In this document: positions 2,541 through 43,333 of the stretch, in pieces
How positions within the stretch are numbered: position 1 is the stretch's first letter
Layout: each line of letters opens with the position of its first letter
Assembly: GCA_029259415.1 (NCBI GenBank)
Contig: JAPDIW010000005.1
Span: 13,805-77,804, forward strand
DNA from: Archaeoglobi archaeon
Lineage (GTDB): Archaea; Halobacteriota; Archaeoglobi; Archaeoglobales; Archaeoglobaceae
DNA: 64,000 bases
Direction of reading: 5' to 3'
Made by a program: the position numbers and the translations under genes
Notes under the pieces: generated by a model
Database searches by the model: none
What the model saw: the letters and a program-made list of their open reading frames with translations, nothing else
What the model was told of the DNA's origin: nothing

Positions 2541-4802
2541 ATGAAGCTCAATCGCACTGCCGAAACTGTGCTTAGGAAGAGGTACCTTCTCAAAGATGAT
2601 AAGGGTAACGTAATTGAGACACCTGAAGAAATGTGCTGGAGAGTTGCAAGGGCAATTGCCAAAGCTGAAGAGAATTACGGAAATGATGCTGAAAAGTGGG
2701 CTGAGGAGTTCTTCAAACTTTTGTGGGAGCAGAAGTTCATGCCCAACTCACCAACGTTGATGAATGCCGGAACGGAGCTGAATCAGCTTTCTGCCTGCTT
2801 TGTCATTCCCGTTGAGGACTCCATTGACGGCATATTTAAGGCTTTATGGGACATGGCAAAGGTTCAGAAGAGTGGCGGTGGTACGGGTTTCAGCTTCTCA
2901 AGGCTGAGACCGAAAGGAGACATAGTGAAATCAACGATGGGTGTGGCAAGTGGGCCAGTGAGTTTCATGAAGATATTCGACGCTGCCACGGAGCAAATAA
3001 AGCAGGGAGGACGGAGGAGAGGAGCAAACATGGGAGTTCTGAATGTCCATCACCCCGACATCGAGGAGTTCATAAAGGCAAAGTGGGAAGAGGGTGTATT
3101 AAGAAACTTCAACATCAGCGTTGCAGCTACCGACGCCTTTATGGAGGCTCTGAAGAAGGATGAGGATTACGAACTCATCAACCCCAGAACGGGGGAAGTC
3201 GTGAGGAAGGTTCCTGCAAGGAAGATATTCAACCTCATCGTTGAGGGTGCGTGGAGAAACGGAGAGCCGGGGATGATTTTCATCGACACAATCAACCGCT
3301 ACAACCCCACACCCCACGTGGGGATGATTGAAGGTACTAATCCATGCGGTGAACAACCCCTTCTGCCGTACGAATCCTGTAACCTCGGCAGCATCAACCT
3401 CGCAAAATTCGTTAAAGATGGTGAAATTGACTGGAATGGGCTTAAAGAAGTTGTCTGGACCGCTGTAAGATTTCTTGATGACGTTATTGACGTTAACAGC
3501 TATCCTATCTCTGAAATTGAGCAGATGACGAAAGCGAATCGCAAAATTGGTCTGGGCGTGATGGGCTGGGCAGACACTCTTTTCCTGCTCAGCATTCCTT
3601 ACGACAGCGAGGAGGCGATTCAGCTTGCTGAGAAGGTGATGAAGTTCATTCAGGGGGAGAGCCACAAAGCTTCGCAGCAACTGGCTGAAGAGAGAGGAGT
3701 TTTTCCGAACTGGAAGGGGAGTGTGTGGGAGAAGAAAGGGATGAAGATGAGAAACGCGACAACCACAACTATTGCCCCCACAGGCACGATAAGCATCATA
3801 GCAGGATGTTCGAGCGGGATTGAGCCAATTTTTGCTCTCGCATACAAGAGAACAAACATCCTCGATGGAGAGGAGTTTTTCGAGATAAATGAGATATTTG
3901 AGGAAGTTTTAAGGAAGAGAGGCCTCTACAGCGACGAGCTCATTGAGAAGGTCGCTGAGAGGGGTAGTATTCAGGAGATAGAGGAGATTCCGGAGGATAT
4001 AAGGAGAGTTTTCAAATGTGCTCTCGACATCCCGCCAGAGTGGCACGTCAAAATGCAGGCAGCCTTCCAGAAGTACACGGACAATGCAGTTAGCAAGACA
4101 ATTAACATGCCGAACTCTGCGTCAAGAAAAGACGTAGAGAAGGCATTTTTGCTGGCTTACGAGCTTGGATGCAAGGGAATTACCGTTTACAGGGACGGGA
4201 GCAGGGAGGAGCAGGTTTTGAGGATAAAGAAGGCTGAAGAGGAGAAGAAAGAGAAAGAAGCGAAGCCGAGACCACCGGCAAAGTACATCGAGCCAAGGCC
4301 AAGGCCCAGAATAACAACGGGCAGAACGATTGAAACGAGGACGGGTTGCGGTTCCCTTTATGTTACCATCAATGAGGATGAATATGGAATTGCAGAAGTT
4401 TTCGTCCAGCTCGGAAAGAGTGGAGGTTGTGCCGCTTCCCAGACAGAAGCCATGGGAAGACTTCTGTCTGTCGCACTGAGAAGCTGGATTGATCCGGAGG
4501 TGCTCATAAGGCAGCTGAAGAATATCCGCTGCCCCTCGCCAGGTTTTGATAACGGAGAGGTTATCACGTCCTGTGCGGATGGTGTGGCAAAGGTTCTCGA
4601 AAAGTACCTCAAGGGAGAGTACAAGAAGATAAAGTTCGAGGTTGAAGGAATTAAACCGCTGACAGCATTCACCGGAGAAGAGGAAGAGAAGGAACCAAGG
4701 ACGAAGCAGATTGGCGGTGTTTGCCCTGAATGCGGTAACGTGTTAGAGTACGGGGAGGGCTGCGCAACCTGCAGGTTCTGCGGGTTTACGAGATGTGGTT
4801 GA
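2541..4802 (+). CDS. nrdJ: Class II (B12-dependent) ribonucleotide reductase with C-terminal TSCPD/Zn-ribbon region
   Basis: PNSPTLMNAG, LSACFV, TNPCGEQPL, TTIAPTGTIS, terminal CxxC-CxxC. Confidence 0.95.
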   Translation: MKLNRTAETVLRKRYLLKDDKGNVIETPEEMCWRVARAIAKAEENYGNDAEKWAEEFFKLLWEQKFMPNSPTLMNAGTELNQLSACFVIPVEDSIDGIFKALWDMAKVQKSGGGTGFSFSRLRPKGDIVKSTMGVASGPVSFMKIFDAATEQIKQGGRRRGANMGVLNVHHPDIEEFIKAKWEEGVLRNFNISVAATDAFMEALKKDEDYELINPRTGEVVRKVPARKIFNLIVEGAWRNGEPGMIFIDTINRYNPTPHVGMIEGTNPCGEQPLLPYESCNLGSINLAKFVKDGEIDWNGLKEVVWTAVRFLDDVIDVNSYPISEIEQMTKANRKIGLGVMGWADTLFLLSIPYDSEEAIQLAEKVMKFIQGESHKASQQLAEERGVFPNWKGSVWEKKGMKMRNATTTTIAPTGTISIIAGCSSGIEPIFALAYKRTNILDGEEFFEINEIFEEVLRKRGLYSDELIEKVAERGSIQEIEEIPEDIRRVFKCALDIPPEWHVKMQAAFQKYTDNAVSKTINMPNSASRKDVEKAFLLAYELGCKGITVYRDGSREEQVLRIKKAEEEKKEKEAKPRPPAKYIEPRPRPRITTGRTIETRTGCGSLYVTINEDEYGIAEVFVQLGKSGGCAASQTEAMGRLLSVALRSWIDPEVLIRQLKNIRCPSPGFDNGEVITSCADGVAKVLEKYLKGEYKKIKFEVEGIKPLTAFTGEEEEKEPRTKQIGGVCPECGNVLEYGEGCATCRFCGFTRCG

Positions 4803-4856
4803 ATTATTTTTTAACTTATTTTCAACTTGCCTATCGTCTGGTTACAATCCCACATC

Positions 4857-5921
4857 TCATCCCAGAATCTGAATCAGCACTCCTGCAGCAACCGCTGATC
4901 CGATAACTCCAGCCACGTTCGGCCCCATCGCATGCATGAGAATGTGGTTTGAAGGGTCCTCCTCTACTGCTAGTCTTTGCACAACTCTTGCCGACATTGG
5001 AACAGCAGAGACTCCCGCGGCACCAATCATGGGGTTTATCTTCTCCTTAAGAAACAGGTTCATGAGCTTGGCAAGCAGCACTCCTCCTGCTGTCGCTGCG
5101 GCAAAGGCAACAACTCCAAGAGCTAAGACGAGAAGCGTTTTCTGAGTAAGAAAGCTCTCCGCCCTCATCGTGCTTCCAACGGAGAGGCCAAGAATTATCG
5201 TCATTATATTCATCAGTTCCTCACTCGCTCCCTTCGCCAGTCTGTCGGTGACACCGCTCTCCCTGAACAGGTTGCCCGTCATGAGCATTCCCACAAGGGG
5301 GAGAGCTTTAGGGGCGAGGAAACCGGAAATGATTATGGTTGCAATTGGAAAGATTATTTTCTCCCTTTTTGACACCACTCTGAGCTGCTTCATCTTGATC
5401 TTCCTCTCCCTTCTCGTCGTGAGTGCTTTGATGATTGGCGGCTGGATAATCGGGACGAGGGACATGTAGCTGTAAGCAGCTACAGCTGTAGCTGCGAGCA
5501 GGTGTGGGGCAAGAATTGTTGTTGTGTAAATCGTCGTCGGGCCGTCAGCACCGCCGATTATACCTATTGATGCAGCCTCCTGCGGAGTGAAGCCGAGAAA
5601 AAGTGCAGCAATAAGGGCTGCAAAAATGCCAATCTGGGCTGCAGCGCCCAGCAAGAACGTTTTCGGATTTGCGAGTAAAGGCGAGAAGTCAGTCAATGCC
5701 CCCAATCCGAGAAATATTAATAGGGGAACTATTTCGGTGTGGATGAGGTATTTCAGGAAGAGGTCGAAAATGCTCCCCTCCTCAGCCAGCCCCGCACCGG
5801 GAATGTTGACGAGGATTGCCCCTATCCCGATTGGCACGAGGAGGAGGGGCTCCATTCTCTTGACTATCCCTAAATAAATCAAAACCAATCCAACACCTAT
5901 CATCACAAAGCTTCCGAGCAT
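4857..5921 (-). CDS. Na+-translocating carboxylic acid decarboxylase beta subunit (OadB/MmdB)
   Basis: [38 protein letters not shown]; start placed at MLGSF after RBS GGTGA. Confidence 0.93.
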
Positions 5922-5925
5922 CAGC

Positions 5926-6360
5926 TCACCGCTGAATGATTGCCACAACATCTCCCGCTTCTATCCTCTGCCCCTCCTTCACCGTGATTTCAGCAACAAC
6001 ACCATCAACGGGGCTTACGATTTCATTTTCCATCTTCATCGACTCGATTATCACAACCGGATCTCCGGCTTTTACCCTGTCTCCCGGACTGACAAGAATT
6101 TTAAGCACAACTCCCGGAAGCATCGACGTTACAGCTTCTCCTGTTCCCTTCAGCTCATTCCTGACTTCAGATATCAGAGCAGAAGAGGCAACCGGCTCAA
6201 ATTGTGTTTTTTCCACTGTTCTTTCCACCCTCTCGTAGATGTCCTCAACAACAACCTCAGCCTCCTTTTCGCCAACCTTTACCCTGTAAACTCCCTCTCT
6301 GAGCTTCTCCACACCGACTTTGAAGTCCACTCCGTCCACCCTGATTCTGTAAAACCTCAT
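5926..6360 (-). CDS. Biotin carboxyl carrier subunit of the decarboxylase
   Basis: ESMKMENEI biotinyl-lysine motif; operon context. Confidence 0.9.
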
Positions 6361-13752: not shown

Positions 13753-14173
13753 GGTAAGCATCTTCCCCATCGCTGTAGTAACCATGAATTACATCGATGA
13801 TTTCAAATCCAAATTTTTTATACAATCTTTGAGCCGGGATGTTTGAAACCCTCACTTCAAGCAGAATCTTCCTCTTTCCCCTTCCTTCGAGCCTTTTAAT
13901 CGCTTCTGAAAGAAGCATCTTCCCTATCCCCATCCCCCTGAATTCCTTTCTCACAGCGAAGGCCATTATCTTTCCAGTGAACTCATCAACATCCATCGTC
14001 ACTATATATCCAGCTATTTTTGAGCCGGTATCTGCAACAAGCAAATCGGAGCCGTAGGTTATGTAAACATAAACGTCGTAAGCAGGATTGCGCGGAGAGA
14101 AAGCTTCCTTGTCTATCTCAAGAATTTCTCTGAAGTCTTTGTGAGTGTAGTCCCTTATTATCACAGTCTGCAC
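13724..14173 (-). CDS. rimI: RimI-like GNAT N-acetyltransferase
   Basis: RGMGIGKML, LEVRVSN, YYSDGEDA. Confidence 0.9.
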   Translation of the reverse strand: MQTVIIRDYTHKDFREILEIDKEAFSPRNPAYDVYVYITYGSDLLVADTGSKIAGYIVTMDVDEFTGKIMAFAVRKEFRGMGIGKMLLSEAIKRLEGRGKRKILLEVRVSNIPAQRLYKKFGFEIIDVIHGYYSDGEDAYLMARTSQVQ

Positions 14174-19960: not shown

Positions 19961-20306
19961 GAAATCAATCCCGAGGGGAATGTATTTAAATGTTGAGGGA
20001 TTTGCAGGCAGGTTAGTAGAGGAGCTCATCACGAAGCTGGCTGAAATTTGGGGGATAAACAAGGACAGTAACCCCGGCCGGATTGATGACGCATGACATC
20101 CGTAGCCCTCCAAACCTCAACATGCATCCGGTTTATTAATTCCTTATACATTCCACATAACCCGTTCTCTGCAACTTCTCCAATCTATTCATCTCTTTAG
20201 CCTCAAAATTCACAAACTCCTTGTCATCCGGTCTGATCTGCCATATACACCCCCAACCGTTCCTTGCCTTTCAACTCCTCATGCAGCGTTGCGCAATGGG
20301 GGGGCG

Positions 20307-32154: not shown

Positions 32155-32508
32155 TCACTCGAGGCAGTAACACCCAAGAGAGGGTATGTGGACATCACCC
32201 CTCAAATGCCTGACAGCAGCGGTGATCCTCTGCACGGTAGCCACGTCAAGCTCCCTCATCACGTTGTGGAGCGTGGACTTCTTTGGAGGATTTCTGTAGG
32301 TCCACCCGTGCTGTCTCAGCATGTCAAGGTTCTCTTGGCACCACCTCTCCGCCTGCCTCAGGCTCCACCCCTCCTTGAGGGTGAGGTAGATTACCGCCGT
32401 CAGCAGGGTGCGTGGGTAGGGATGTCTTCCCCTCTTCACCTGGTGGTGATCCGACCCACCGAGGACCATCCTGCACGCCTCGAGGATAACCTCGAACTCA
32501 TCCCCGAC
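32155..32508 (-). CDS. Stand-alone transposase-type N-terminal HTH domain (IS4/IS5-like), no DDE domain; start approximate
   Basis: RGRHPYP...LTAVIYLTLKEGWSLRQAE...PPKKSTLHNVMREL. Confidence 0.6.
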   Translation of the reverse strand, partial: VGDEFEVILEACRMVLGGSDHHQVKRGRHPYPRTLLTAVIYLTLKEGWSLRQAERWCQENLDMLRQHGWTYRNPPKKSTLHNVMRELDVATVQRITAAVRHLRGDVHIPSLGCYCLE

Positions 32509-32575
32509 CAAACTACCAGCACCCCTCAGACGCAATCTGACCTGTCCAAAAAATAGAATTTTGATGAACCCTATG

Positions 32576-33166
32576 TCAAACATCCAGCGTCACGGTAGCC
32601 TCCAGGATCTTGTCTCCGTTCCACCTCCAGACCTCGCTGTGTATGGTGTAGGTCCCGTGGCTCCAGCCCCAGATCTCGACGGTGTAGGTCTTAGTCTCGT
32701 TGGGCTCAAGGTTCAGCGGCACGGGGAACGGGGCGTTGAACTCGCTGATCCTGCCATCGGGGCCTATCACCTTCACGAAGCCCGTTACGTAGTCGATAGA
32801 TCTATTGTCTACGTTCTTCAGGGTGACCAACGCCGTTCCCGCATCCAGATCGACCGAGTAGTCCACGATCTCCAGGTCGTTGTCGGTCTCTTCAGCATAC
32901 ATCTCCGCAAACCTTTCGTAGCGCTTTTGAATCTCCATGTACTCCGCCGTCTCGCTCCTCCCCTTCTGCTCCAGCTCCCTCAGCCTGTTCTCGTACTTCT
33001 CCATGATCTTCTTCACGGCCCCATCGTATGCGTCGTCGCTCACTATGCGGAGCATTCTGCCTATCTCCATGACGTGCAGGTAGAGCTGATCTGTAACGTC
33101 CTCCAGGAACATTCCTAGGGGGGCCGCAACGACCAGCGAGAGCATGACCAACGCTGCACTATTCAC
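32576..33166 (-). CDS. Signal-anchored protein with coiled coil and C-terminal Ig/CARDB-like domain
   Basis: GTG start after GGAGGTGG; VTLKN...LEPNETKTYTV. Confidence 0.75.
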   Translation of the reverse strand: MNSAALVMLSLVVAAPLGMFLEDVTDQLYLHVMEIGRMLRIVSDDAYDGAVKKIMEKYENRLRELEQKGRSETAEYMEIQKRYERFAEMYAEETDNDLEIVDYSVDLDAGTALVTLKNVDNRSIDYVTGFVKVIGPDGRISEFNAPFPVPLNLEPNETKTYTVEIWGWSHGTYTIHSEVWRWNGDKILEATVTLDV

Positions 33167-33473: not shown

Positions 33474-34697
33474 TTATCCGACAGGGCTCAGCTGGATCCT
33501 CACCACGTAGGGATTCATCGGATCCACAGCCGAGCCGTACACACCCATCCCTTTAGGAATGTTGTCCACAACCTTATAAAAAATATCGATAAAACCTTCG
33601 AACTTCACACTTGCCGTCCTTACCAACCTCGTCAGCTTGCTACGCTGGACATAGCCGAGTACGTATATCTCGTCTGCATTCTCCACAACTATCCTCTCAA
33701 GGGCATCTGGTGACTGGGTTTCCAAGAACACCGTCCACCCATACGATCTCGCCAGCACAGTGACCAGCCTTATTATCTCCCTTTTCGCCTCGAACTCGCC
33801 GGTTTCAGGAGCGTAGATGTGGCTCTCGGTTATGCCTATAAAGCACTCTTGCCTCTTGTAGGCCCTCTCGACCATCTTGAGCATCTGCGCAACAACGAAG
33901 CGCTTGATGTCTATATCTCCGAGATCGGACAGATCCACGATGTTAATCTGCTCTGGATGGATGTAGCCGTGCACGGTTTTGGCTTTGTTCACTTCAAGAA
34001 GCTGGTCCATCCTCAGCAGCTCGATGAAGCGCTTAACATGCAGCACCATGGTGTTGAAGTATGGGTCGTCCTGAAACCTGTAAAGCTCGTTCTCCACCGC
34101 ATCAACTAAGTCCTGGATAGTAATGTGGTTATCCCTACTCTGCCAGACCCTCTCCAGCACAAGTCCTGCTACCGTAGAGGACATCCGCTTGCCGAAGTAC
34201 TCTGCAATCGTTGAGTAGTCCAACTCGGCAAGCGGGATTTTGAGTTCAATTTCTTCCCTGCTCTCACTCTCTTTTAGTGGAACGAGATACCTCTGCGGTG
34301 AAGCACAGCCATCGGGTGGAGCGAGCCTGATTCTCTCTATGCCAGCCTCCCTTATCTGGTTTAGCGACGGTGAGCGGTTGAAGTCCAGGTCCCCCCTCTT
34401 CTCCTGGAATGCCACGATGGGGTTCTTGGTGGTCCTGTAATAGGCTTGGATGATGTTGCGCATGAGGTTCGTTTTGCCTATTCCCTTTCCCGCCACCACA
34501 AGGATCACCTTGCCCTTCTCGACTGAGTAGGCTGAGGGGTTAAAGTAGTGGGGCTGCATCCAGGGCGTGCGGTGACCTATTTTGTAGCCTATCTTCACCG
34601 CATTCTCGCACCCTCTGTATACCAGCCTGAGCGGGATGTACCTGTCGTCCCTCCTCTTCGGCAGCTGAAGCCTTGCCGTATTATATTTTAATAGCAT
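33474..34697 (-). CDS. HerA/FtsK/VirB4-like P-loop ATPase (putative packaging/extrusion motor)
   Basis: Walker A AGKGIGKT; Walker B region FIGITESH; LARSYG; FLETQSP. Confidence 0.85.
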   Translation of the reverse strand: MLLKYNTARLQLPKRRDDRYIPLRLVYRGCENAVKIGYKIGHRTPWMQPHYFNPSAYSVEKGKVILVVAGKGIGKTNLMRNIIQAYYRTTKNPIVAFQEKRGDLDFNRSPSLNQIREAGIERIRLAPPDGCASPQRYLVPLKESESREEIELKIPLAELDYSTIAEYFGKRMSSTVAGLVLERVWQSRDNHITIQDLVDAVENELYRFQDDPYFNTMVLHVKRFIELLRMDQLLEVNKAKTVHGYIHPEQINIVDLSDLGDIDIKRFVVAQMLKMVERAYKRQECFIGITESHIYAPETGEFEAKREIIRLVTVLARSYGWTVFLETQSPDALERIVVENADEIYVLGYVQRSKLTRLVRTASVKFEGFIDIFYKVVDNIPKGMGVYGSAVDPMNPYVVRIQLSPVG

Positions 34698-34727
34698 GTC
34701 CGTCGGACCTCCCACCGGACTCAACCA

Positions 34728-37833: not shown

Positions 37834-39228
37834 CTACTCACCTCCCTCCTGCCTCCAGACGACAAACTTCAAAACTCCAGCAAGAACCGCCAAACCCACC
37901 AAAATCTGAGCCCAAGGCTCGTTCAGGTACTCGTACCAGCTTCTCTCCTCCGACAGGTTGAGGTTAAGGGCGTTGTTGATTGCCTTGACAGCGTTGATCT
38001 GCCCGTACTCGACCTTATCATCCGGATCGCTTATCTCGTCCGTGCTCAGCTTGATCAGCGTCTCTGCTTGGCTAGGCGTGATGCCCTTCTCAGCTTCAAC
38101 CAACAAGAGGACACCAGCAATGTGAGGAGCTGCAAAGCTCGTTCCGTCTCCGGAGTACAGGTTTCCGTCCGACGACAGCACCGGAACTTGAACGCCGGGA
38201 GCTGCTACCAAAGCCCCGCCGTTGCTGAATGAAGCGACGCTTCCGTAAATGTCCGTCGCAGCGACAGAGATGACGGTATCGTAGGCCGCAGGGTAGAGCG
38301 ATGTAGCTCCTCCCGAGTTTCCGGAGGCTGCCACAAGGATGACGCTCTTGCCGTACAGCAGATCACAGAGGGTTTCAAGCTCTGGTGGGGCTAAGTCAGC
38401 TCCCAGGCTCATCGACACGACATCTATCCTCTCACCAGCGTTCACTTTATCGAGAACCCACTCCAGGCCTGCTATTACGTCGCTCCAGTTCCCCTCGCCG
38501 TTATCGTTCAGAACCTTGAGGGCATAATAGCCGGCAGAGGGAGCCACGCCCGTATACTTGTCCTCTCCCTCCGCCAGGATTATCGAAGTGCACTCGGTGC
38601 CGTGGCCGTAAACGTCGTCCGGCTCCGCGTCGCCGTAGGCGAAGTCGTAGCCTCCGAGGTAGCCGTCGTCGAGGTCTGGCAGGTTGTGATTGACGCCTGT
38701 ATCCAGAACTGCCACAACTGCACCTTTGCCGGTGAAGTTCGATCTGTGGGCGATATCTGCCTTTATCGCTTCGAGATTCCAGCCCAGATCCTGAACTACG
38801 GGCTTAATCGGGATCTGGGAGAGGGTATCAGCGAAGCCTACCGCCCTGACCCTCTGGTCGTAAAGAACCTTCTGAACCCTCGGGTTTTCGAGCAACTTTT
38901 GGAGTTCCTTATAGTCCCCCTCCACGACGGCCCAGTTCGCATACTTGCCAGCCTTGATGACCTTGAATCCCTGCCTTTCCAGCTCAGTAGCATTAACGCC
39001 GCTCACGAACATTCTAACCGGCTTCTTGGGATTCGTGGCGAACTTCTGCTGCAGAACTGGGTCGAGCTTCTGGTTCTTGACTTCCTCCTGTTCTATCTTT
39101 TCCTCAAGCCACTTCCCGAAATCCGGTACGTGGATGAGCGGCGGGTCTGCGATGTAGGCCGCGTAAACGAATGCCGCAAGTCCGAGGGCTGCGATTGCAA
39201 TTCCGAGGAGCTTGAGATCGTCGCCCAT
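37834..39228 (-). CDS. Subtilisin-like S8 serine protease with N-terminal anchor, prodomain and C-terminal TM
   Basis: Triad motifs VAVLDTG, YGHGTEC, GTSFAAPH; oxyanion AASGN. Confidence 0.95.
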   Translation of the reverse strand: MGDDLKLLGIAIAALGLAAFVYAAYIADPPLIHVPDFGKWLEEKIEQEEVKNQKLDPVLQQKFATNPKKPVRMFVSGVNATELERQGFKVIKAGKYANWAVVEGDYKELQKLLENPRVQKVLYDQRVRAVGFADTLSQIPIKPVVQDLGWNLEAIKADIAHRSNFTGKGAVVAVLDTGVNHNLPDLDDGYLGGYDFAYGDAEPDDVYGHGTECTSIILAEGEDKYTGVAPSAGYYALKVLNDNGEGNWSDVIAGLEWVLDKVNAGERIDVVSMSLGADLAPPELETLCDLLYGKSVILVAASGNSGGATSLYPAAYDTVISVAATDIYGSVASFSNGGALVAAPGVQVPVLSSDGNLYSGDGTSFAAPHIAGVLLLVEAEKGITPSQAETLIKLSTDEISDPDDKVEYGQINAVKAINNALNLNLSEERSWYEYLNEPWAQILVGLAVLAGVLKFVVWRQEGGE

Positions 39229-39986: not shown

Positions 39987-40508
39987 TTAGAGGATGACTC
40001 TGATGATCCCCATGCCCACCTTTATTCCGACCGCCACCCCCACAGGGATTATCAGAATCCCCCAGAGGAGCGTATCGACGAGCAGGTTGTTGAACAGCGG
40101 CGGGCAGCTCTGCTTCACGAAGAGGAAGTATCCTGCCACATAGCTCATGTAGCCCTCGTAGCCCGTGACGTTGAGTGTTATGGTGTCCGTTGCGGGGGAG
40201 GTTTCTATCGTGATTGTGCCCGAAGACTTGTCCACGTGGAAATATGCGTTATCCTCTCCCTTGTTGACTCCGTCAACGAGGATTGAGTAGCCTGTGCCAT
40301 CGGCAACCCTCACGAAGATTGTATCGCCGTAGTGGACTTCAACATCTGTGAAGTTGGTCGTGTAGCTCCCTTCCAAGCCAAAAAGCCCTCCGTTGCACAC
40401 TTCGAGGGTTGCGGCTGTGGCGTTGACAATGGCTGCCGTGCTGACTGGAATCCATGCGAGCATTAGAAAAATAAGGAGTTTTAAAGCTCTCATTCCAGCC
40501 CTGTTCAT
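39987..40508 (-). CDS. Secreted protein with C-terminal TM
   Basis: Signal peptide ending STA-A; beta-rich domain; TM. Confidence 0.75.
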   Translation of the reverse strand: MNRAGMRALKLLIFLMLAWIPVSTAAIVNATAATLEVCNGGLFGLEGSYTTNFTDVEVHYGDTIFVRVADGTGYSILVDGVNKGEDNAYFHVDKSSGTITIETSPATDTITLNVTGYEGYMSYVAGYFLFVKQSCPPLFNNLLVDTLLWGILIIPVGVAVGIKVGMGIIRVIL

Positions 40509-43333
40509 AGTACCACCCTTATCAGCGTCAGCACCAGGCTCACTACGATGAGTCCGCCTATGAGCAGTATGAACGCCCACAGAATGCTGTCTATCGCTTG
40601 GTTACCGAGAATCGGATAAGCAGTTGCGAGCTGTCCGAGAAATCCGCCGAACCCCGTGGTGGTGCCGACCTTCACGGTAATCTCGTTCTCAACAGTCTCC
40701 CCGGTGGCCGAGACTGCTGTAACGTTGTACACCCCCGCCTCGTCGAACGTGTAGCGTGCGGGATCCTTGACGAAGGTTGCAGTCTTGTTTCCGTTGATGT
40801 ACAGCTCTCCTCCCTCTGCGACGACTTTCCCGTTCTGCAGGATGGCGAACTCCACCTCGGAGCCAACTGGTAAGGCGACATCGCCGAACTGCCAGCTCTT
40901 GAACCACTCGTCTATGCTGTCCCAAGCCCAGTAGAGCCCGTAGCCCATTCCTGCTCCTATCGCGGCTCCGGGGATTGCTCCGATTCCTCCGCCGAGAATT
41001 GCTCCGATTACTGCTCCTATTCCAGCTCCAAGTCCGGTTGAACCCATCGTGTTCTCGCTGCTCTGCTCTGGCACTTTAACGAGCTTCCAGCTGAGGAGGT
41101 AGCTGTTCGGGTCGACGACCTCTATGTAGGCTATGTCCGTCAAGCCGTTGTACTCCGCCCTGAGCGTGTAGTTGCCCGGGTCAACGAAGTCGTAGTCCAG
41201 CCAGGCCCCGAAGAACCAGCCCCTCGTCTCGCCAATCATCTCCCCGTTAAGATATATCGGCACGTCAGCCAGCTCGGCTCCGTGCTCGTTCACGACGCTG
41301 ATTTTGCGTTTTCCAACCCACACAACCTGCCCGTCTGCATCGCTTCCGTCTATCCTCAGCTCTATCCTTGTTGTTGTGAGGTCTTCACCCCCATCGTCGT
41401 CCAGGTCTCCTGATGGCTTGAGGTAGACCGTAAGCTCGGTGTCAGCAGAGAACTGCCTGTCCTCAATCAGCTTGTTGCTGTAGTCTCCTGATGGGTCGGA
41501 CACATGGATGGTGTAGCTAACTCCCGAATCCACCGTCAGAACTGCTGTACCATCCTCCCTGGTCACCTTCTGCTCCACGACAGAGCCGCCCTTCAGCAGC
41601 GAGACCACCACACCCGGGATGGATTTCTCCGAGTGCTCGTCGAGAACCCTGACCGTGAGGGTGAGGCTCCCGCCGTCCTTGTCAAACTCGTCTACATCGC
41701 TGTAGACGTAAACAGTCCCAGTTCCGGTGCGGAGCACTCCTGAAGAGGTGGTTATCTCCGCATAGACCTCGTGCAACCCCACATTGTTGAAGGGATAAGT
41801 AAGTTCGGGGTCGGCATCCCCTATCCTTTCTCCATCGACAAGTATGACACTCCTCACAGCCTCCTTCTGCACCCCGTTGCAGACCTTGACTGTCTTGAAT
41901 GTGACCTTGCCCCCTACCTTGACGGACTGAGGGGAATAGATGAGCGTGTACTGGCATCCGTCCTCATCCGGCTCGGTTCTCGGGTAGTCACCGTCATCCG
42001 CTCCCCCGTTGACGTCGTAGGTCTCGTTCAGAATCGTAACGTTTGTTGCCCTGGAGAGCTCGTCACCGATTTTGGCGTAGACGTAGTGCTCACCTGCAGA
42101 GTCGACTCTGATTACCGCCTGCGGAACGTCTGGGTTAACGAGGTCGTCAAAGAAGTCGAAGAAACCCCAGTCGTCTGGGTCTTTGGTTTTAACTCCTGTT
42201 GATTGCCCGTCAACGTATATCTCAGCCCCCTCAATCCACTCTGGGTCGAGAGGATTCCACCATGCCTTCTGTGTGTTCTTGACCTTGACGATTATCGGCT
42301 CGTTGACCTTGGCTGTGTACTTGTCCAGAATGCAGATGTACTTGCTGTCGGGGTTGCCGTAATCTCCAGGCTGTTCTGGCTGCTCCTCAGGGATTTCCTC
42401 AACCGTTATCACTCCCACCTGGGTGTCGTTGTAGTAAATCTCCACGTACCTGGGAAACTCTGCTACCTCGGCAGCGAGGGAGTGCTCTGGTTCTGGTGTG
42501 CTGTACAAAACATCTCCGCTCTCGCTCTTAACCACAAACTTGAACTTCTTCCCAGACTCCTGAGACAGATAGACCCAATATGTACCCCCTAAATCTCTGA
42601 CCGAACCGTTGAAGGTCACAGAGTTCATTGAGGTGTAAACCTTGACGCTTGCGTGGTCTGGGATTGCTGGGGAGCTTCCGCTGCTTTGCGAAAGTGATAT
42701 TGATACTAAGCTGAGAGTATCCTTGACTATCGTTTTGTCGTTGTAAATATCGCCTATAAACTCACTGTACCACTGCACGATAGGTGTCCCCCAACTCGTG
42801 TACCCGACAATCCTGTACTCCTTAGCCCTTACAGTTATCGAGTCATCTGCAACTTTACTCCAGTCCACGTCAAAATAAATGTCCATCGTGCACGGTTCAA
42901 ATCCAACGTAAATCGTCGCTGTGCCGATTTGCGTTTTATCCGAACCCGTAACCACCCTTCCGTCCAACACCCAGGGCCCAGTAACATATTCTAAACTCGA
43001 TGTGCCGGCACCCAGTTCTGCCCTATAAACTTTATGTTTGCATGAGCTGGCTGGATAGATTATTTCCAGCTTGCTGATTTTTCTGCCAGCCAATCCACTT
43101 ATCGTAATCGCATTCTTCTCTACTATCCCATAATTCCAGCCTGTAAACTCTATATGCCTCTCAGTCGTTGACGAACTCGTGTTGGCCTCGAAGATTCTCT
43201 CGTAAACGTCCCCAGGGAGGTAAACCGTCTTGCTTATCTCTACAGTCGTTAGAGCGTCAACTTCTTGTGCCGACGCTGGAACTGCCGTCAGTGCAATAGC
43301 CACTATGCAAAAAAAGAGAAGAAAACGCTTCAC
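40505..43333 (-). CDS. 942-aa surface/spike-like protein with signal peptide, repeated Ig/PEGA-like domains, glycine zipper and C-terminal TM
   Basis: PASA signal cleavage; IYVDG, ILVDG, IYLNG, LYING repeats; many NxT/S sequons. Confidence 0.85.
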   Translation of the reverse strand: MKRFLLFFCIVAIALTAVPASAQEVDALTTVEISKTVYLPGDVYERIFEANTSSSTTERHIEFTGWNYGIVEKNAITISGLAGRKISKLEIIYPASSCKHKVYRAELGAGTSSLEYVTGPWVLDGRVVTGSDKTQIGTATIYVGFEPCTMDIYFDVDWSKVADDSITVRAKEYRIVGYTSWGTPIVQWYSEFIGDIYNDKTIVKDTLSLVSISLSQSSGSSPAIPDHASVKVYTSMNSVTFNGSVRDLGGTYWVYLSQESGKKFKFVVKSESGDVLYSTPEPEHSLAAEVAEFPRYVEIYYNDTQVGVITVEEIPEEQPEQPGDYGNPDSKYICILDKYTAKVNEPIIVKVKNTQKAWWNPLDPEWIEGAEIYVDGQSTGVKTKDPDDWGFFDFFDDLVNPDVPQAVIRVDSAGEHYVYAKIGDELSRATNVTILNETYDVNGGADDGDYPRTEPDEDGCQYTLIYSPQSVKVGGKVTFKTVKVCNGVQKEAVRSVILVDGERIGDADPELTYPFNNVGLHEVYAEITTSSGVLRTGTGTVYVYSDVDEFDKDGGSLTLTVRVLDEHSEKSIPGVVVSLLKGGSVVEQKVTREDGTAVLTVDSGVSYTIHVSDPSGDYSNKLIEDRQFSADTELTVYLKPSGDLDDDGGEDLTTTRIELRIDGSDADGQVVWVGKRKISVVNEHGAELADVPIYLNGEMIGETRGWFFGAWLDYDFVDPGNYTLRAEYNGLTDIAYIEVVDPNSYLLSWKLVKVPEQSSENTMGSTGLGAGIGAVIGAILGGGIGAIPGAAIGAGMGYGLYWAWDSIDEWFKSWQFGDVALPVGSEVEFAILQNGKVVAEGGELYINGNKTATFVKDPARYTFDEAGVYNVTAVSATGETVENEITVKVGTTTGFGGFLGQLATAYPILGNQAIDSILWAFILLIGGLIVVSLVLTLIRVVL

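Follow-up and report, generated by a model that had tools for sequence, protein, structure and literature searches.

A variable, membrane-anchored surface protein with a glycine zipper as candidate recognition protein of a putative mobile element in Archaeoglobi

The only viruses described from Archaeoglobi are the Thalassapleoviridae (PMC10919331, PMC12451623), and the class had no described virus at all until AvPV1 in 2024. In the pleolipovirus spike VP5 the N-terminal 20 residues form a putative fusion peptide (PMC6381117). Among capsid-less archaeal elements, those of the pT26-2 family have a core in which a large protein with hydrophobic ends and a CarboxypepD_reg/PEGA domain is followed by another large protein, by small transmembrane proteins and by a HerA/VirB4-like ATPase; there is no capsid gene, the transfer mechanism is unknown, and reports confine the family to Thermococcales and Methanococcales (PMC2926602, PMC6972569). 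Glycine zippers are known from SlyB and YfgH, whose hairpins are embedded in membranes and oligomerise (bioRxiv 10.64898/2025.12.22.696046), and from the type VI secretion system (T6SS) effector Tde1, where the zipper permeabilises the target membrane, is required for translocation across it and is conserved in tape-measure proteins (PMC10240207). Here we describe a gene, referred to as the spike gene, in a window of 64,000 nucleotides (nt) from an archaeon of the class Archaeoglobi (the window being the whole stretch of DNA analysed, positions 13,805–77,804 of contig JAPDIW010000005.1, assembly GCA_029259415.1).

The open reading frame (ORF) of the spike is a real, intact gene, and its product is a large type I membrane-anchored surface protein. 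From the N- to the C-terminus it consists of a signal peptide, a hypervariable part of ≈300 amino acids (aa), a stalk, a glycine-zipper hairpin, a last β-sandwich and a conserved C-terminal anchor. We see about an even chance that the spike is the main surface-exposed recognition protein (spike/adhesin) of a mobile element, with the zipper as a hairpin "foot" in the spike's own membrane. Recognition of target cells is the most likely task of its variable tip, and engagement of a membrane by the protein is plausible. Nothing that we found makes the spike a membrane-fusion protein.

Layout and divergence of the spike

The genes neighbouring the spike are 65–92% identical between elements, with 79–92% for the S8 protease, 85–88% for the ATPase and 87–92% for a 299-aa protein (p299). 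Within the spike the C-terminal module is 34–88% identical and the stalk 23–74%, and the tip (residues 1–325) cannot be aligned at all, the 8–22% obtained there being noise. The parts also behave differently within one comparison, as the spike of G003, a genome from the same genus, shares the C-terminal module (43%) and does not share the stalk (23%). These discordant identities indicate recombination, and tip, stalk and C-terminal module have separate histories. Such fast mosaic change inside a frozen module reads as the signature of a recognition protein of a mobile element or virus. Since the tip is replaced wholesale while the flanking genes stay near-identical, we assign a role in host recognition to the spike.

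The spike gene is present in a single copy in the host genome. It has 942 open codons and a TGA stop at 40505–40507, which is included in the coordinates of Table 1. The start codon is GTG (giving MKRFLLFF...), and the homologues share that start. The signal peptide is probably cleaved after ASA. The earlier note on this DNA, which was made from the letters alone, had described the ORF, an internal hydrophobic segment and three aromatic clusters in an acidic protein with Ig-like repeats, and all of these were found as described, with 135 D and E residues against 72 K and R residues for the acidity.

The Ig-like repeats were also recovered by structure prediction. AlphaFold2 was run on the full-length spike with the family alignment (mean predicted local distance difference test (pLDDT) score 49) and on residues 738–942, the C-terminal module (mean pLDDT 56), both times as a monomer. 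Residues 325–742 were modelled as a string of β-sandwiches with a pLDDT of 70–86. Residues 1–324 were not modelled (pLDDT ≈22); what little secondary structure is predicted there consists of strands. After the zipper comes one further β-sandwich and then the terminal helix, and the run on residues 738–942 agrees with this. No long coiled coil was seen in the full-length model, in which the zipper and the anchor are the only long helices. Foldseek searches of PDB and BFVD with the spike model gave nothing beyond generic Ig/macroglobulin/Big arrays (TM-scores ≈0.1), and the membrane-proximal β-sandwich gave generic PKD/FN3/CARDB matches with E values of 1.5e-3 or weaker. With Pfam, PF13620 (CarboxypepD_reg) matched residues 558–615 and PF22820 (TcaA_3rd_4th) matched residues 368–392, below the curated cut-off or barely at it.

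The three aromatic clusters had been read as membrane-engaging elements that interrupt the repeats, and the view of them as special interruptions was not supported. The stalk repeats follow the signature xIY(V/I)(D/N)Gxx(V/I)GxT, loop, xxYxFxxxGxYxVxA, and each of the three clusters is one such loop or adjoins one. When the spike sequence was shuffled, a density of 5 W/F in 11 residues was reached in 94 of 5000 shuffles, which is modestly unusual, and 1312 of 5000 shuffles matched the number of clusters, which is thus not significant. The corresponding loops of 11 relatives mostly contain ≈15–30% W/F compared with 5–6% overall, though sequence and length change. The equivalent of loop 1 is W/F-rich in 10 of the 11 relatives, and its WWNP(F/L) motif reappears in other repeats of the relatives; the equivalent of loop 2 is W/F-rich in all 11, with varying length and sequence. 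Both loops were modelled with a pLDDT below 50 (residues 357–362 and 387–401, respectively). Loop 3 is predicted as a β-hairpin with a pLDDT of 74–80, and the equivalent loop is hydrophobic across the family. Because the equivalent loops are W/F-rich in the relatives and WWNP(F/L) recurs in different repeats, the aromatic clusters are a family-wide property of the stalk repeat and not three special insertions. The loops might form conserved contact surfaces of the stalk repeats, and their partner could be a glycan, the S-layer, a membrane or a neighbouring subunit.

Table 1. Features of the spike gene and of its downstream paralogue, with positions counted from the first nucleotide of the window.
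Feature	Position	Strand	Basis
Whole spike ORF, 942-aa type I membrane protein	40505..43333	-	Open frame
Sec-type signal peptide, residues 1–22 (MKRFLLFFCIVAIALTAVPASA)	43268..43333	-	Read from sequence; homologues start alike
Hypervariable N-terminal (distal) domain, residues 23–325	42359..43267	-	Unalignable; identity to relatives 8–22%
Conserved stalk, residues 326–745, PEGA/CarboxypepD_reg/TcaA-like β-sandwiches	41099..42358	-	AlphaFold2, Pfam, Foldseek
Aromatic loop 1, KAWWNPLD, residues 356–363	42245..42268	-	Sequence; W/F-rich in relatives
Aromatic loop 2, DWGFFDFFDDL, residues 388–398, after motif YVDGxxTGxKT	42140..42172	-	Sequence; W/F-rich in relatives
Aromatic loop 3, GWFFGAWL, residues 705–712, after YLNGEMIGET	41198..41221	-	Sequence; hydrophobic family-wide
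Glycine-zipper hairpin, GLGAGIGAVIGAILGGGIGAIPGAAIGAGMGYGLYWAW, residues 767–804	40922..41035	-	Gly register; PF13441; AlphaFold2
Amphipathic Trp-rich motif, DSIDEWFKSWQFG, residues 805–817	40883..40921	-	Invariant residues in homologues
Membrane-proximal β-sandwich, residues 818–890	40664..40882	-	AlphaFold2 (pLDDT 66–78); Foldseek
Stem (GFGGFLGQLATAYPILG) and C-terminal transmembrane anchor (...DSILWAFILLIGGLIVVSLVLTLIRVVL), residues 891–942	40508..40663	-	Hessa scale; family conservation
Small paralogue of 173 aa (ATG at 40508) with a single PEGA-like domain and the anchor motif of the spike	39987..40508	-	Sequence

The glycine zipper

Eight units of four residues, most of them G-A-x-I, make up the zipper, and residues 788–789 form a Pro-Gly turn. 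Gly is found at every fourth residue from 769 to 797, which gives seven consecutive GxxxG motifs. When the host genome was scanned for such runs (at least five GxxxG, no polar or charged residue), this was the only one in 15,622 stop-to-stop frames of at least 50 aa. The zipper ends ≈113 residues before the C-terminal transmembrane helix (residues ≈917–940), which agrees with the 90–130 residues given in the earlier note. It is part of a ≈60-residue insertion between two β-sandwich domains. Both AlphaFold2 runs predict a helix-turn-helix with low confidence (pLDDT 25–43), and the second helix runs on through the Trp-rich motif. Among zipper homologues that are only 41–44% identical the Gly register is invariant and the bulky residues vary; the six specified residues of the motif that follows, D-x-W-F-x-x-W-Q-x-x-D, do not vary in the same homologues either.

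Of the Pfam glycine-zipper families tested (PF13441, PF13488, PF13436 and PF05433) none is matched at its curated gathering cut-off. PF13441 comes closest with an E value of 7e-6 and 26.0 bits, just under the cut-off of 28.9, followed by PF13488 with 16.5 bits (cut-off 25), and PF05433 gave a weak match in only two homologues. Sequence matches in PDB were an OmpA-family chain of 6x65/7muc (E = 0.006) and the tape-measure protein 9ki1_g (E = 0.12). The insertion, the predicted helix-turn-helix, the PF13441 match and the adjoining Trp-rich motif suggest that the zipper is a distinct module of the known glycine-zipper type, probably membrane-active and not part of the soluble β fold. For this segment, then, the idea of a membrane-engaging element gained support.

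Only two segments of the spike were scored as membrane-integrating by a rough Hessa scale, namely the signal peptide (−0.4 kcal/mol) and the anchor (−4.2 kcal/mol). The best window in the zipper scored +2.5 kcal/mol, and the zipper should therefore be exported and not stopped in the translocon.

The zipper was found in the clade of P0001/3/4/5 and in that of P0066/17/19, or ≈7 of 20 relatives, and is absent from the other 13 examined, whose spikes occupy otherwise near-identical gene modules. As about two thirds of the members are without it, the zipper, on the family's sequences, cannot be the essential or core entry element of the family. The zipperless C-terminal domains form one clade (support 98/99), so that a single gain or loss suffices. 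In the last domain a G/F/W loop is found in the zipperless proteins and in none of the zipper-bearing ones; this reciprocal pattern carries little weight because the tree allows a single event. Two further associations were considered. Co-occurrence of the zipper with the downstream paralogue was rejected, as the paralogue is also found, frameshifted, in a zipperless element. A furin-like activation upstream of the zipper by the co-encoded S8 protease was unsupported, as the zipper-bearing homologues have no conserved cleavage motif and the zipperless elements keep the protease.

The surrounding element, the anchor and the paralogue

The host belongs to Archaeoglobus. Its FtsZ shares 85% identity with the FtsZ of Archaeoglobus sp. 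UBA230, and genes for aIF2-gamma, PriS and beta-oxidation are present. The spike gene lies inside an island of high guanine-plus-cytosine (GC) content (0.53–0.57 compared with ≈0.45), and all genes of this block have the same direction. The block starts with an AbrB/SpoVT gene, followed by a 192-aa protein with signal peptide and anchor, a 131-aa membrane protein with CarboxypepD_reg, the spike and the paralogue. Next come DUF5658 and other small polytopic proteins, an S8 subtilase, several unknown proteins, a winged helix-turn-helix protein and a 416-aa DUF87/HerA-like ATPase (33474–34724, minus strand; the copy of a relative is found at L103:7–1350). A transposase N-terminal fragment at 32155–32583 closes the operon. 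The order of the module (AbrB, a 190-aa protein, a 128-aa CarboxypepD_reg protein, spike, paralogue, small transmembrane proteins, S8 and, further on, the DUF87 ATPase) is conserved around every homologue that could be placed, and no recognisable capsid gene was found among the element proteins. The relatives come from metagenome contigs (Guaymas Basin and Juan de Fuca fluids), one NCBI assembly and other Archaeoglobi genomes, and they often carry a tyrosine integrase or serine recombinase beside the module, next to the AbrB gene.

The S8 subtilase (37834–39228, minus strand) is among the most conserved genes of the module and has hydrophobic segments at both ends. It is apparently tethered outside the membrane and might cut a proteinaceous S-layer or process surface proteins.

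Homologues of the spike are rare. A search of 5.8 billion proteins gave five relatives, and a search of 1.84 billion cluster representatives gave 23 proteins at E ≤1e-10, including partial proteins and two repeat-only matches. Of 96 species genomes from Archaeoglobi, 5 contain a homologue; a sample of 401 genomes from the phylum yielded only four, all of the host's own order. PHROGs gave no match for the structural proteins, and no relatives were detected by tblastn against the PLSDB plasmids, in GTDB species genomes scanned by peptide patterns or in a scan of IMG/VR. Judged by its sequence and distribution, the element is an integrated mobile element specific to Archaeoglobi.

The C-terminal anchor motif is conserved family-wide, and in the host genome it was found only in the spike and the adjacent paralogue. 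Because it is confined to these two proteins, the motif appears to be an assembly signal specific to the element, not one by which the host sorts its proteins. Some 8 residues before the anchor helix there is also a conserved P-(L/I)-(T/L)-G, superficially like a sorting signal of the LPXTG type (ALPLTG in P0007, AIPLTG in P0006 and AYPILG in the window at ≈40580–40600). A host-wide signal of the LPXTG/archaeosortase type was rejected, as the tail P(L/I)(T/L)G...LW...R(V/I)(V/I)L occurs in no other protein of the host genome. A host protein sorted to the S-layer or by an archaeosortase is likewise not what the data describe, with homologues in so few Archaeoglobi genomes (5 of 96), a location in a high-GC island and an anchor found in two element proteins only.

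In elements of the G003/L092 type the paralogue (L102:9016–10875) is 619 aa long: its C-terminal 150 residues are those of the small form, and a DUF2341 domain is fused to them. Since paralogue and spike share the anchor, the element bears two modular surface proteins on one anchor type. In the window the ATG of the paralogue overlaps the last codon and the stop of the spike (CTATGA, 40505–40510), with GGTG ≈8 nt upstream, and in L090 spike and next gene (3730–5460 and 5457–5978) likewise overlap by 4 nt. This arrangement suggests translational coupling of spike and paralogue. The GTG at 40580 that is listed as start of the paralogue is probably not the real one. In two relatives the genes are split: the spike of L090 (2259–5460) into two ORFs of 510 and 576 aa, and the small paralogue of L086 (4861–5381) into 80 and 93 aa. 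These splits are frameshifts, assembly errors or decaying copies.

Possible roles and comparison with known systems

If the spike is the recognition protein of the element, it would be exported by Sec, and the stalk would hold the variable tip off the membrane of the producer cell, or off a vesicle or virion derived from it, and the tip would bind a surface structure of the target cell. The zipper, being too weakly hydrophobic for a translocon stop, would be exported with the ectodomain and would then most likely fold into a helical hairpin in the spike's own membrane beside the anchor, with the Trp-rich amphipathic helix lying at the membrane interface. Hairpin, interfacial helix, last β-sandwich and stem would together form the foot. 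The Gly/Ala face of the zipper would pack on other zippers or anchors and so cluster and stiffen the spikes, as SlyB-type hairpins do. We favour a hairpin in the spike's own membrane because the zipper is one domain from the anchor, is dispensable in most of the family and has no device that would project it to a target.

Several points weigh against this reading. The placement of the hairpin in its own and not in the target membrane draws on analogy and geometry, and the zipper was modelled with low confidence in both AlphaFold2 runs. The Hessa estimate takes no account of where in the segment a residue lies or of cooperativity within the hairpin. In sequence, the zipper is matched most closely by the tape-measure-like protein P0068 (53% identity over ≈36 residues, E = 8.5e-4), and tape-measure proteins have reportedly been proposed, though not demonstrated, to insert into target membranes. 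No tyrosine integrase (PF00589) was found on this contig, positions 20300–45000 of the window included, and this copy of the element may be immobilised. Finally, profile comparisons detected no similarity between the spike and the PEGA protein of pT26-2.

The match to P0068 fits better with an unlikely alternative, namely that the spike is a fusion or penetration protein whose exported zipper hairpin, perhaps together with the aromatic loops, enters the target membrane after the tip has bound and fuses membranes or opens a DNA channel. The zipper is hydrophobic yet predicted to escape the translocon, a property common to viral fusion peptides, and a Trp-rich helix of interfacial type comes directly after it. 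Tape-measure-like proteins (P0068 and 9ki1_g) are among its best matches, the Tde1 zipper is needed for permeabilisation and translocation and is conserved in tape-measure proteins (PMC10240207), and an element with no recognisable capsid gene makes a membrane-based transfer route plausible. Yet about two thirds of the family have no zipper in the same, otherwise 80–90% identical module, and where it is present it lies one domain from its own membrane and ≈750 residues from the tip, with no heptad-repeat helices in the AlphaFold2 model that could project it and no conserved cleavage motif upstream. Neither Foldseek nor hhalign found a class I, II, III or VP4-like fold, the Foldseek searches of PDB and BFVD having been made with monomer models of moderate to low confidence. 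The novel fusogen suggested in the earlier note, which had named structure prediction and Foldseek among its checks, thus gained no support: the monomer run gave generic arrays, no long coiled coils and no fusogen fold, and most of the family manages without the zipper. A bolder form of the idea, which we consider doubtful, is that zipper hairpin, Trp-rich interfacial helix and small β-sandwich make up a new archaeal device for membrane penetration or fusion, convergent with the zippers of tape-measure proteins and Tde1. After binding of the tip the hairpin would enter the recipient membrane and fuse it or open a channel, and the zipperless relatives would use the Gly/Phe/Trp loop of the last domain instead. 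If true, this would supply the long-sought transfer mechanism for capsid-less elements of the pT26-2 type.

It is also improbable, in our view, that the spike is an ordinary cell-surface adhesin or S-layer-associated protein, present as cargo or domesticated by the host (e.g., for attachment to minerals or biofilm), with no role in the movement of the element, the zipper being a hydrophobic linker or a second anchor. A signal peptide, Ig-like repeats and a C-terminal anchor are generic for archaeal surface proteins, the Foldseek matches include S-layer PKD domains and glycan-binding proteins, and there is no integrase on the contig of this copy. Core modules of pT26-2 also survive in decayed elements, which has been read as host benefit (PMC6972569). 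However, the gene is always found in the same mobile module with translationally coupled neighbours, is rare and patchy among Archaeoglobi, and has an anchor motif used by no host protein. Moreover, near-identical elements differ in the whole of the tip, as would be expected if recognition proteins were engaged in an arms race.

With this locus, Archaeoglobi have a second family of membrane-centred elements, one unrelated to AvPV1. The fastest-evolving, modular surface protein of this family is also singled out as what likely sets the target specificity. This bears on the question of how capsid-less archaeal elements, the pT26-2 family among them, pass from cell to cell, and the spike offers a handle for finding out whether particles, vesicles or contact between cells spread the elements described here. 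Zipper-bearing and zipperless elements, with modules otherwise 80–90% identical, are furthermore a natural comparison for the function of such hairpins outside bacteria.

The spikes of pleolipo- and thalassapleoviruses (VP4/VP5, e.g., HRPV-6 VP5, PDB 6QGL, and AvPV1 gp06) resemble the protein described here in having a signal peptide, a C-terminal transmembrane anchor and a variable distal part. Their genes also lie in a capsid-less element, beside those of an NTPase and of small membrane proteins, and the thalassapleoviruses infect the same class as the host of the spike. Membership in either group was nevertheless rejected, as no sequence or profile similarity to the spike, fusogen or NTPase of AvPV1 was found. 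Comparison of the family alignment with hhalign gave probabilities of 0.5% for AvPV1 gp06 and 0.2% for gp05, tblastn of the spike against a phage collection that includes AvPV1 gave no match, and neither did the profiles of all 17 module proteins against AvPV1. The NTPase of AvPV1 is nSTAND-like, whereas the ATPase of the module is DUF87/HerA-like. VP5 has a V shape with an N-terminal four-helix bundle, and residues 325–742 of the spike were modelled as a string of β-sandwiches without a helical bundle (residues 1–324 not being modelled). VP5 has its hydrophobic putative fusion peptide at the N-terminus (PMC6381117), unlike the spike, in which the mature N-terminus (QEVDALTTVEISK) is polar and residues 767–804 are the only internal hydrophobic segment. 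The contrast with pleolipovirus spikes drawn in the earlier note therefore holds, and it extends to the VP4-like fusogen of AvPV1, to which we found no similarity.

With respect to the zipper, SlyB, YfgH, OsmB and YMGG (PF13441, PF13488 and PF05433) share with the spike the consecutive GxxxG motifs, the helix-turn-helix and the central Pro/Gly turn. Hairpins of the SlyB type cross the Sec translocon without being retained, as predicted for the spike zipper, and they oligomerise in membranes. The spike differs in that its score is under the Pfam cut-off, its archaeal host has a single membrane, and the hairpin lies in the middle of a 942-aa ectodomain and not after a lipobox, its insertion into a membrane being putative. 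The zippers of tape-measure proteins and Tde1 are alike in the repeat and in an aromatic-acidic motif, as seen from GAGIGAIIGGILGG...GWFWDD in P0068 and GAGIGAVIGAILGG...YWAWDS in the spike, and these too are proteins of mobile elements used on the outside of the target cell. The similarity is short and composition-driven. P0068 (1012 aa, a metagenome protein from ENA) has four tandem glycine-zipper hairpins, each followed by G-W-x-x-D, in the same layout of zipper and aromatic-acidic motif as in the spike. Tape-measure proteins and Tde1 are ejected or secreted, whereas the spike is anchored and has one hairpin compared with tandem copies.

The pT26-2 family shows the closest correspondence in gene order. 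Its PEGA domain-containing protein (t26-5p; also in pMEFER01, NC_013157) has hydrophobic segments at both ends and a CarboxypepD_reg/PEGA domain, like the spike, and both loci follow the order small transmembrane protein, large protein, large protein, small transmembrane proteins and an ATPase (≈45–50 kDa, HerA/VirB4-like). They also share an AbrB regulator, integrases in relatives and the lack of a capsid gene, and the function of pT26-2 is likewise only hypothesised (transfer of DNA or protein, by conjugation or a virus-like route). The locus described here differs in its host order and in two additions, a membrane-tethered S8 protease and the glycine zipper, the latter in one lineage. Against the PEGA protein of pMEFER01, hhalign aligned 21 anchor residues of the spike only (probability 0.7%), and hmmsearch gave E = 0.65. 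Of the seven core genes of pT26-2 (t26-5p, 6p, 7p, 11p, 13p, 14p and 15p) only the ATPase is detectably related, and one small membrane protein gave a weak score of 9 bits. The ATPase of the module matched the core ATPase of pMEFER01 (t26-14p type) with an hhalign probability of 77% (E = 2e-5, 189 columns) and with 27 bits in hmmsearch, and the two share an I-x-P-x-x-I-N-I-(I/V)-D motif. Because the ATPases are remotely similar, there are hints that the Archaeoglobi elements are distant relatives of the pT26-2 family. Not a demonstrated member of that family, the locus may best be described as analogous to pT26-2, and perhaps as its distant relative in Archaeoglobi.

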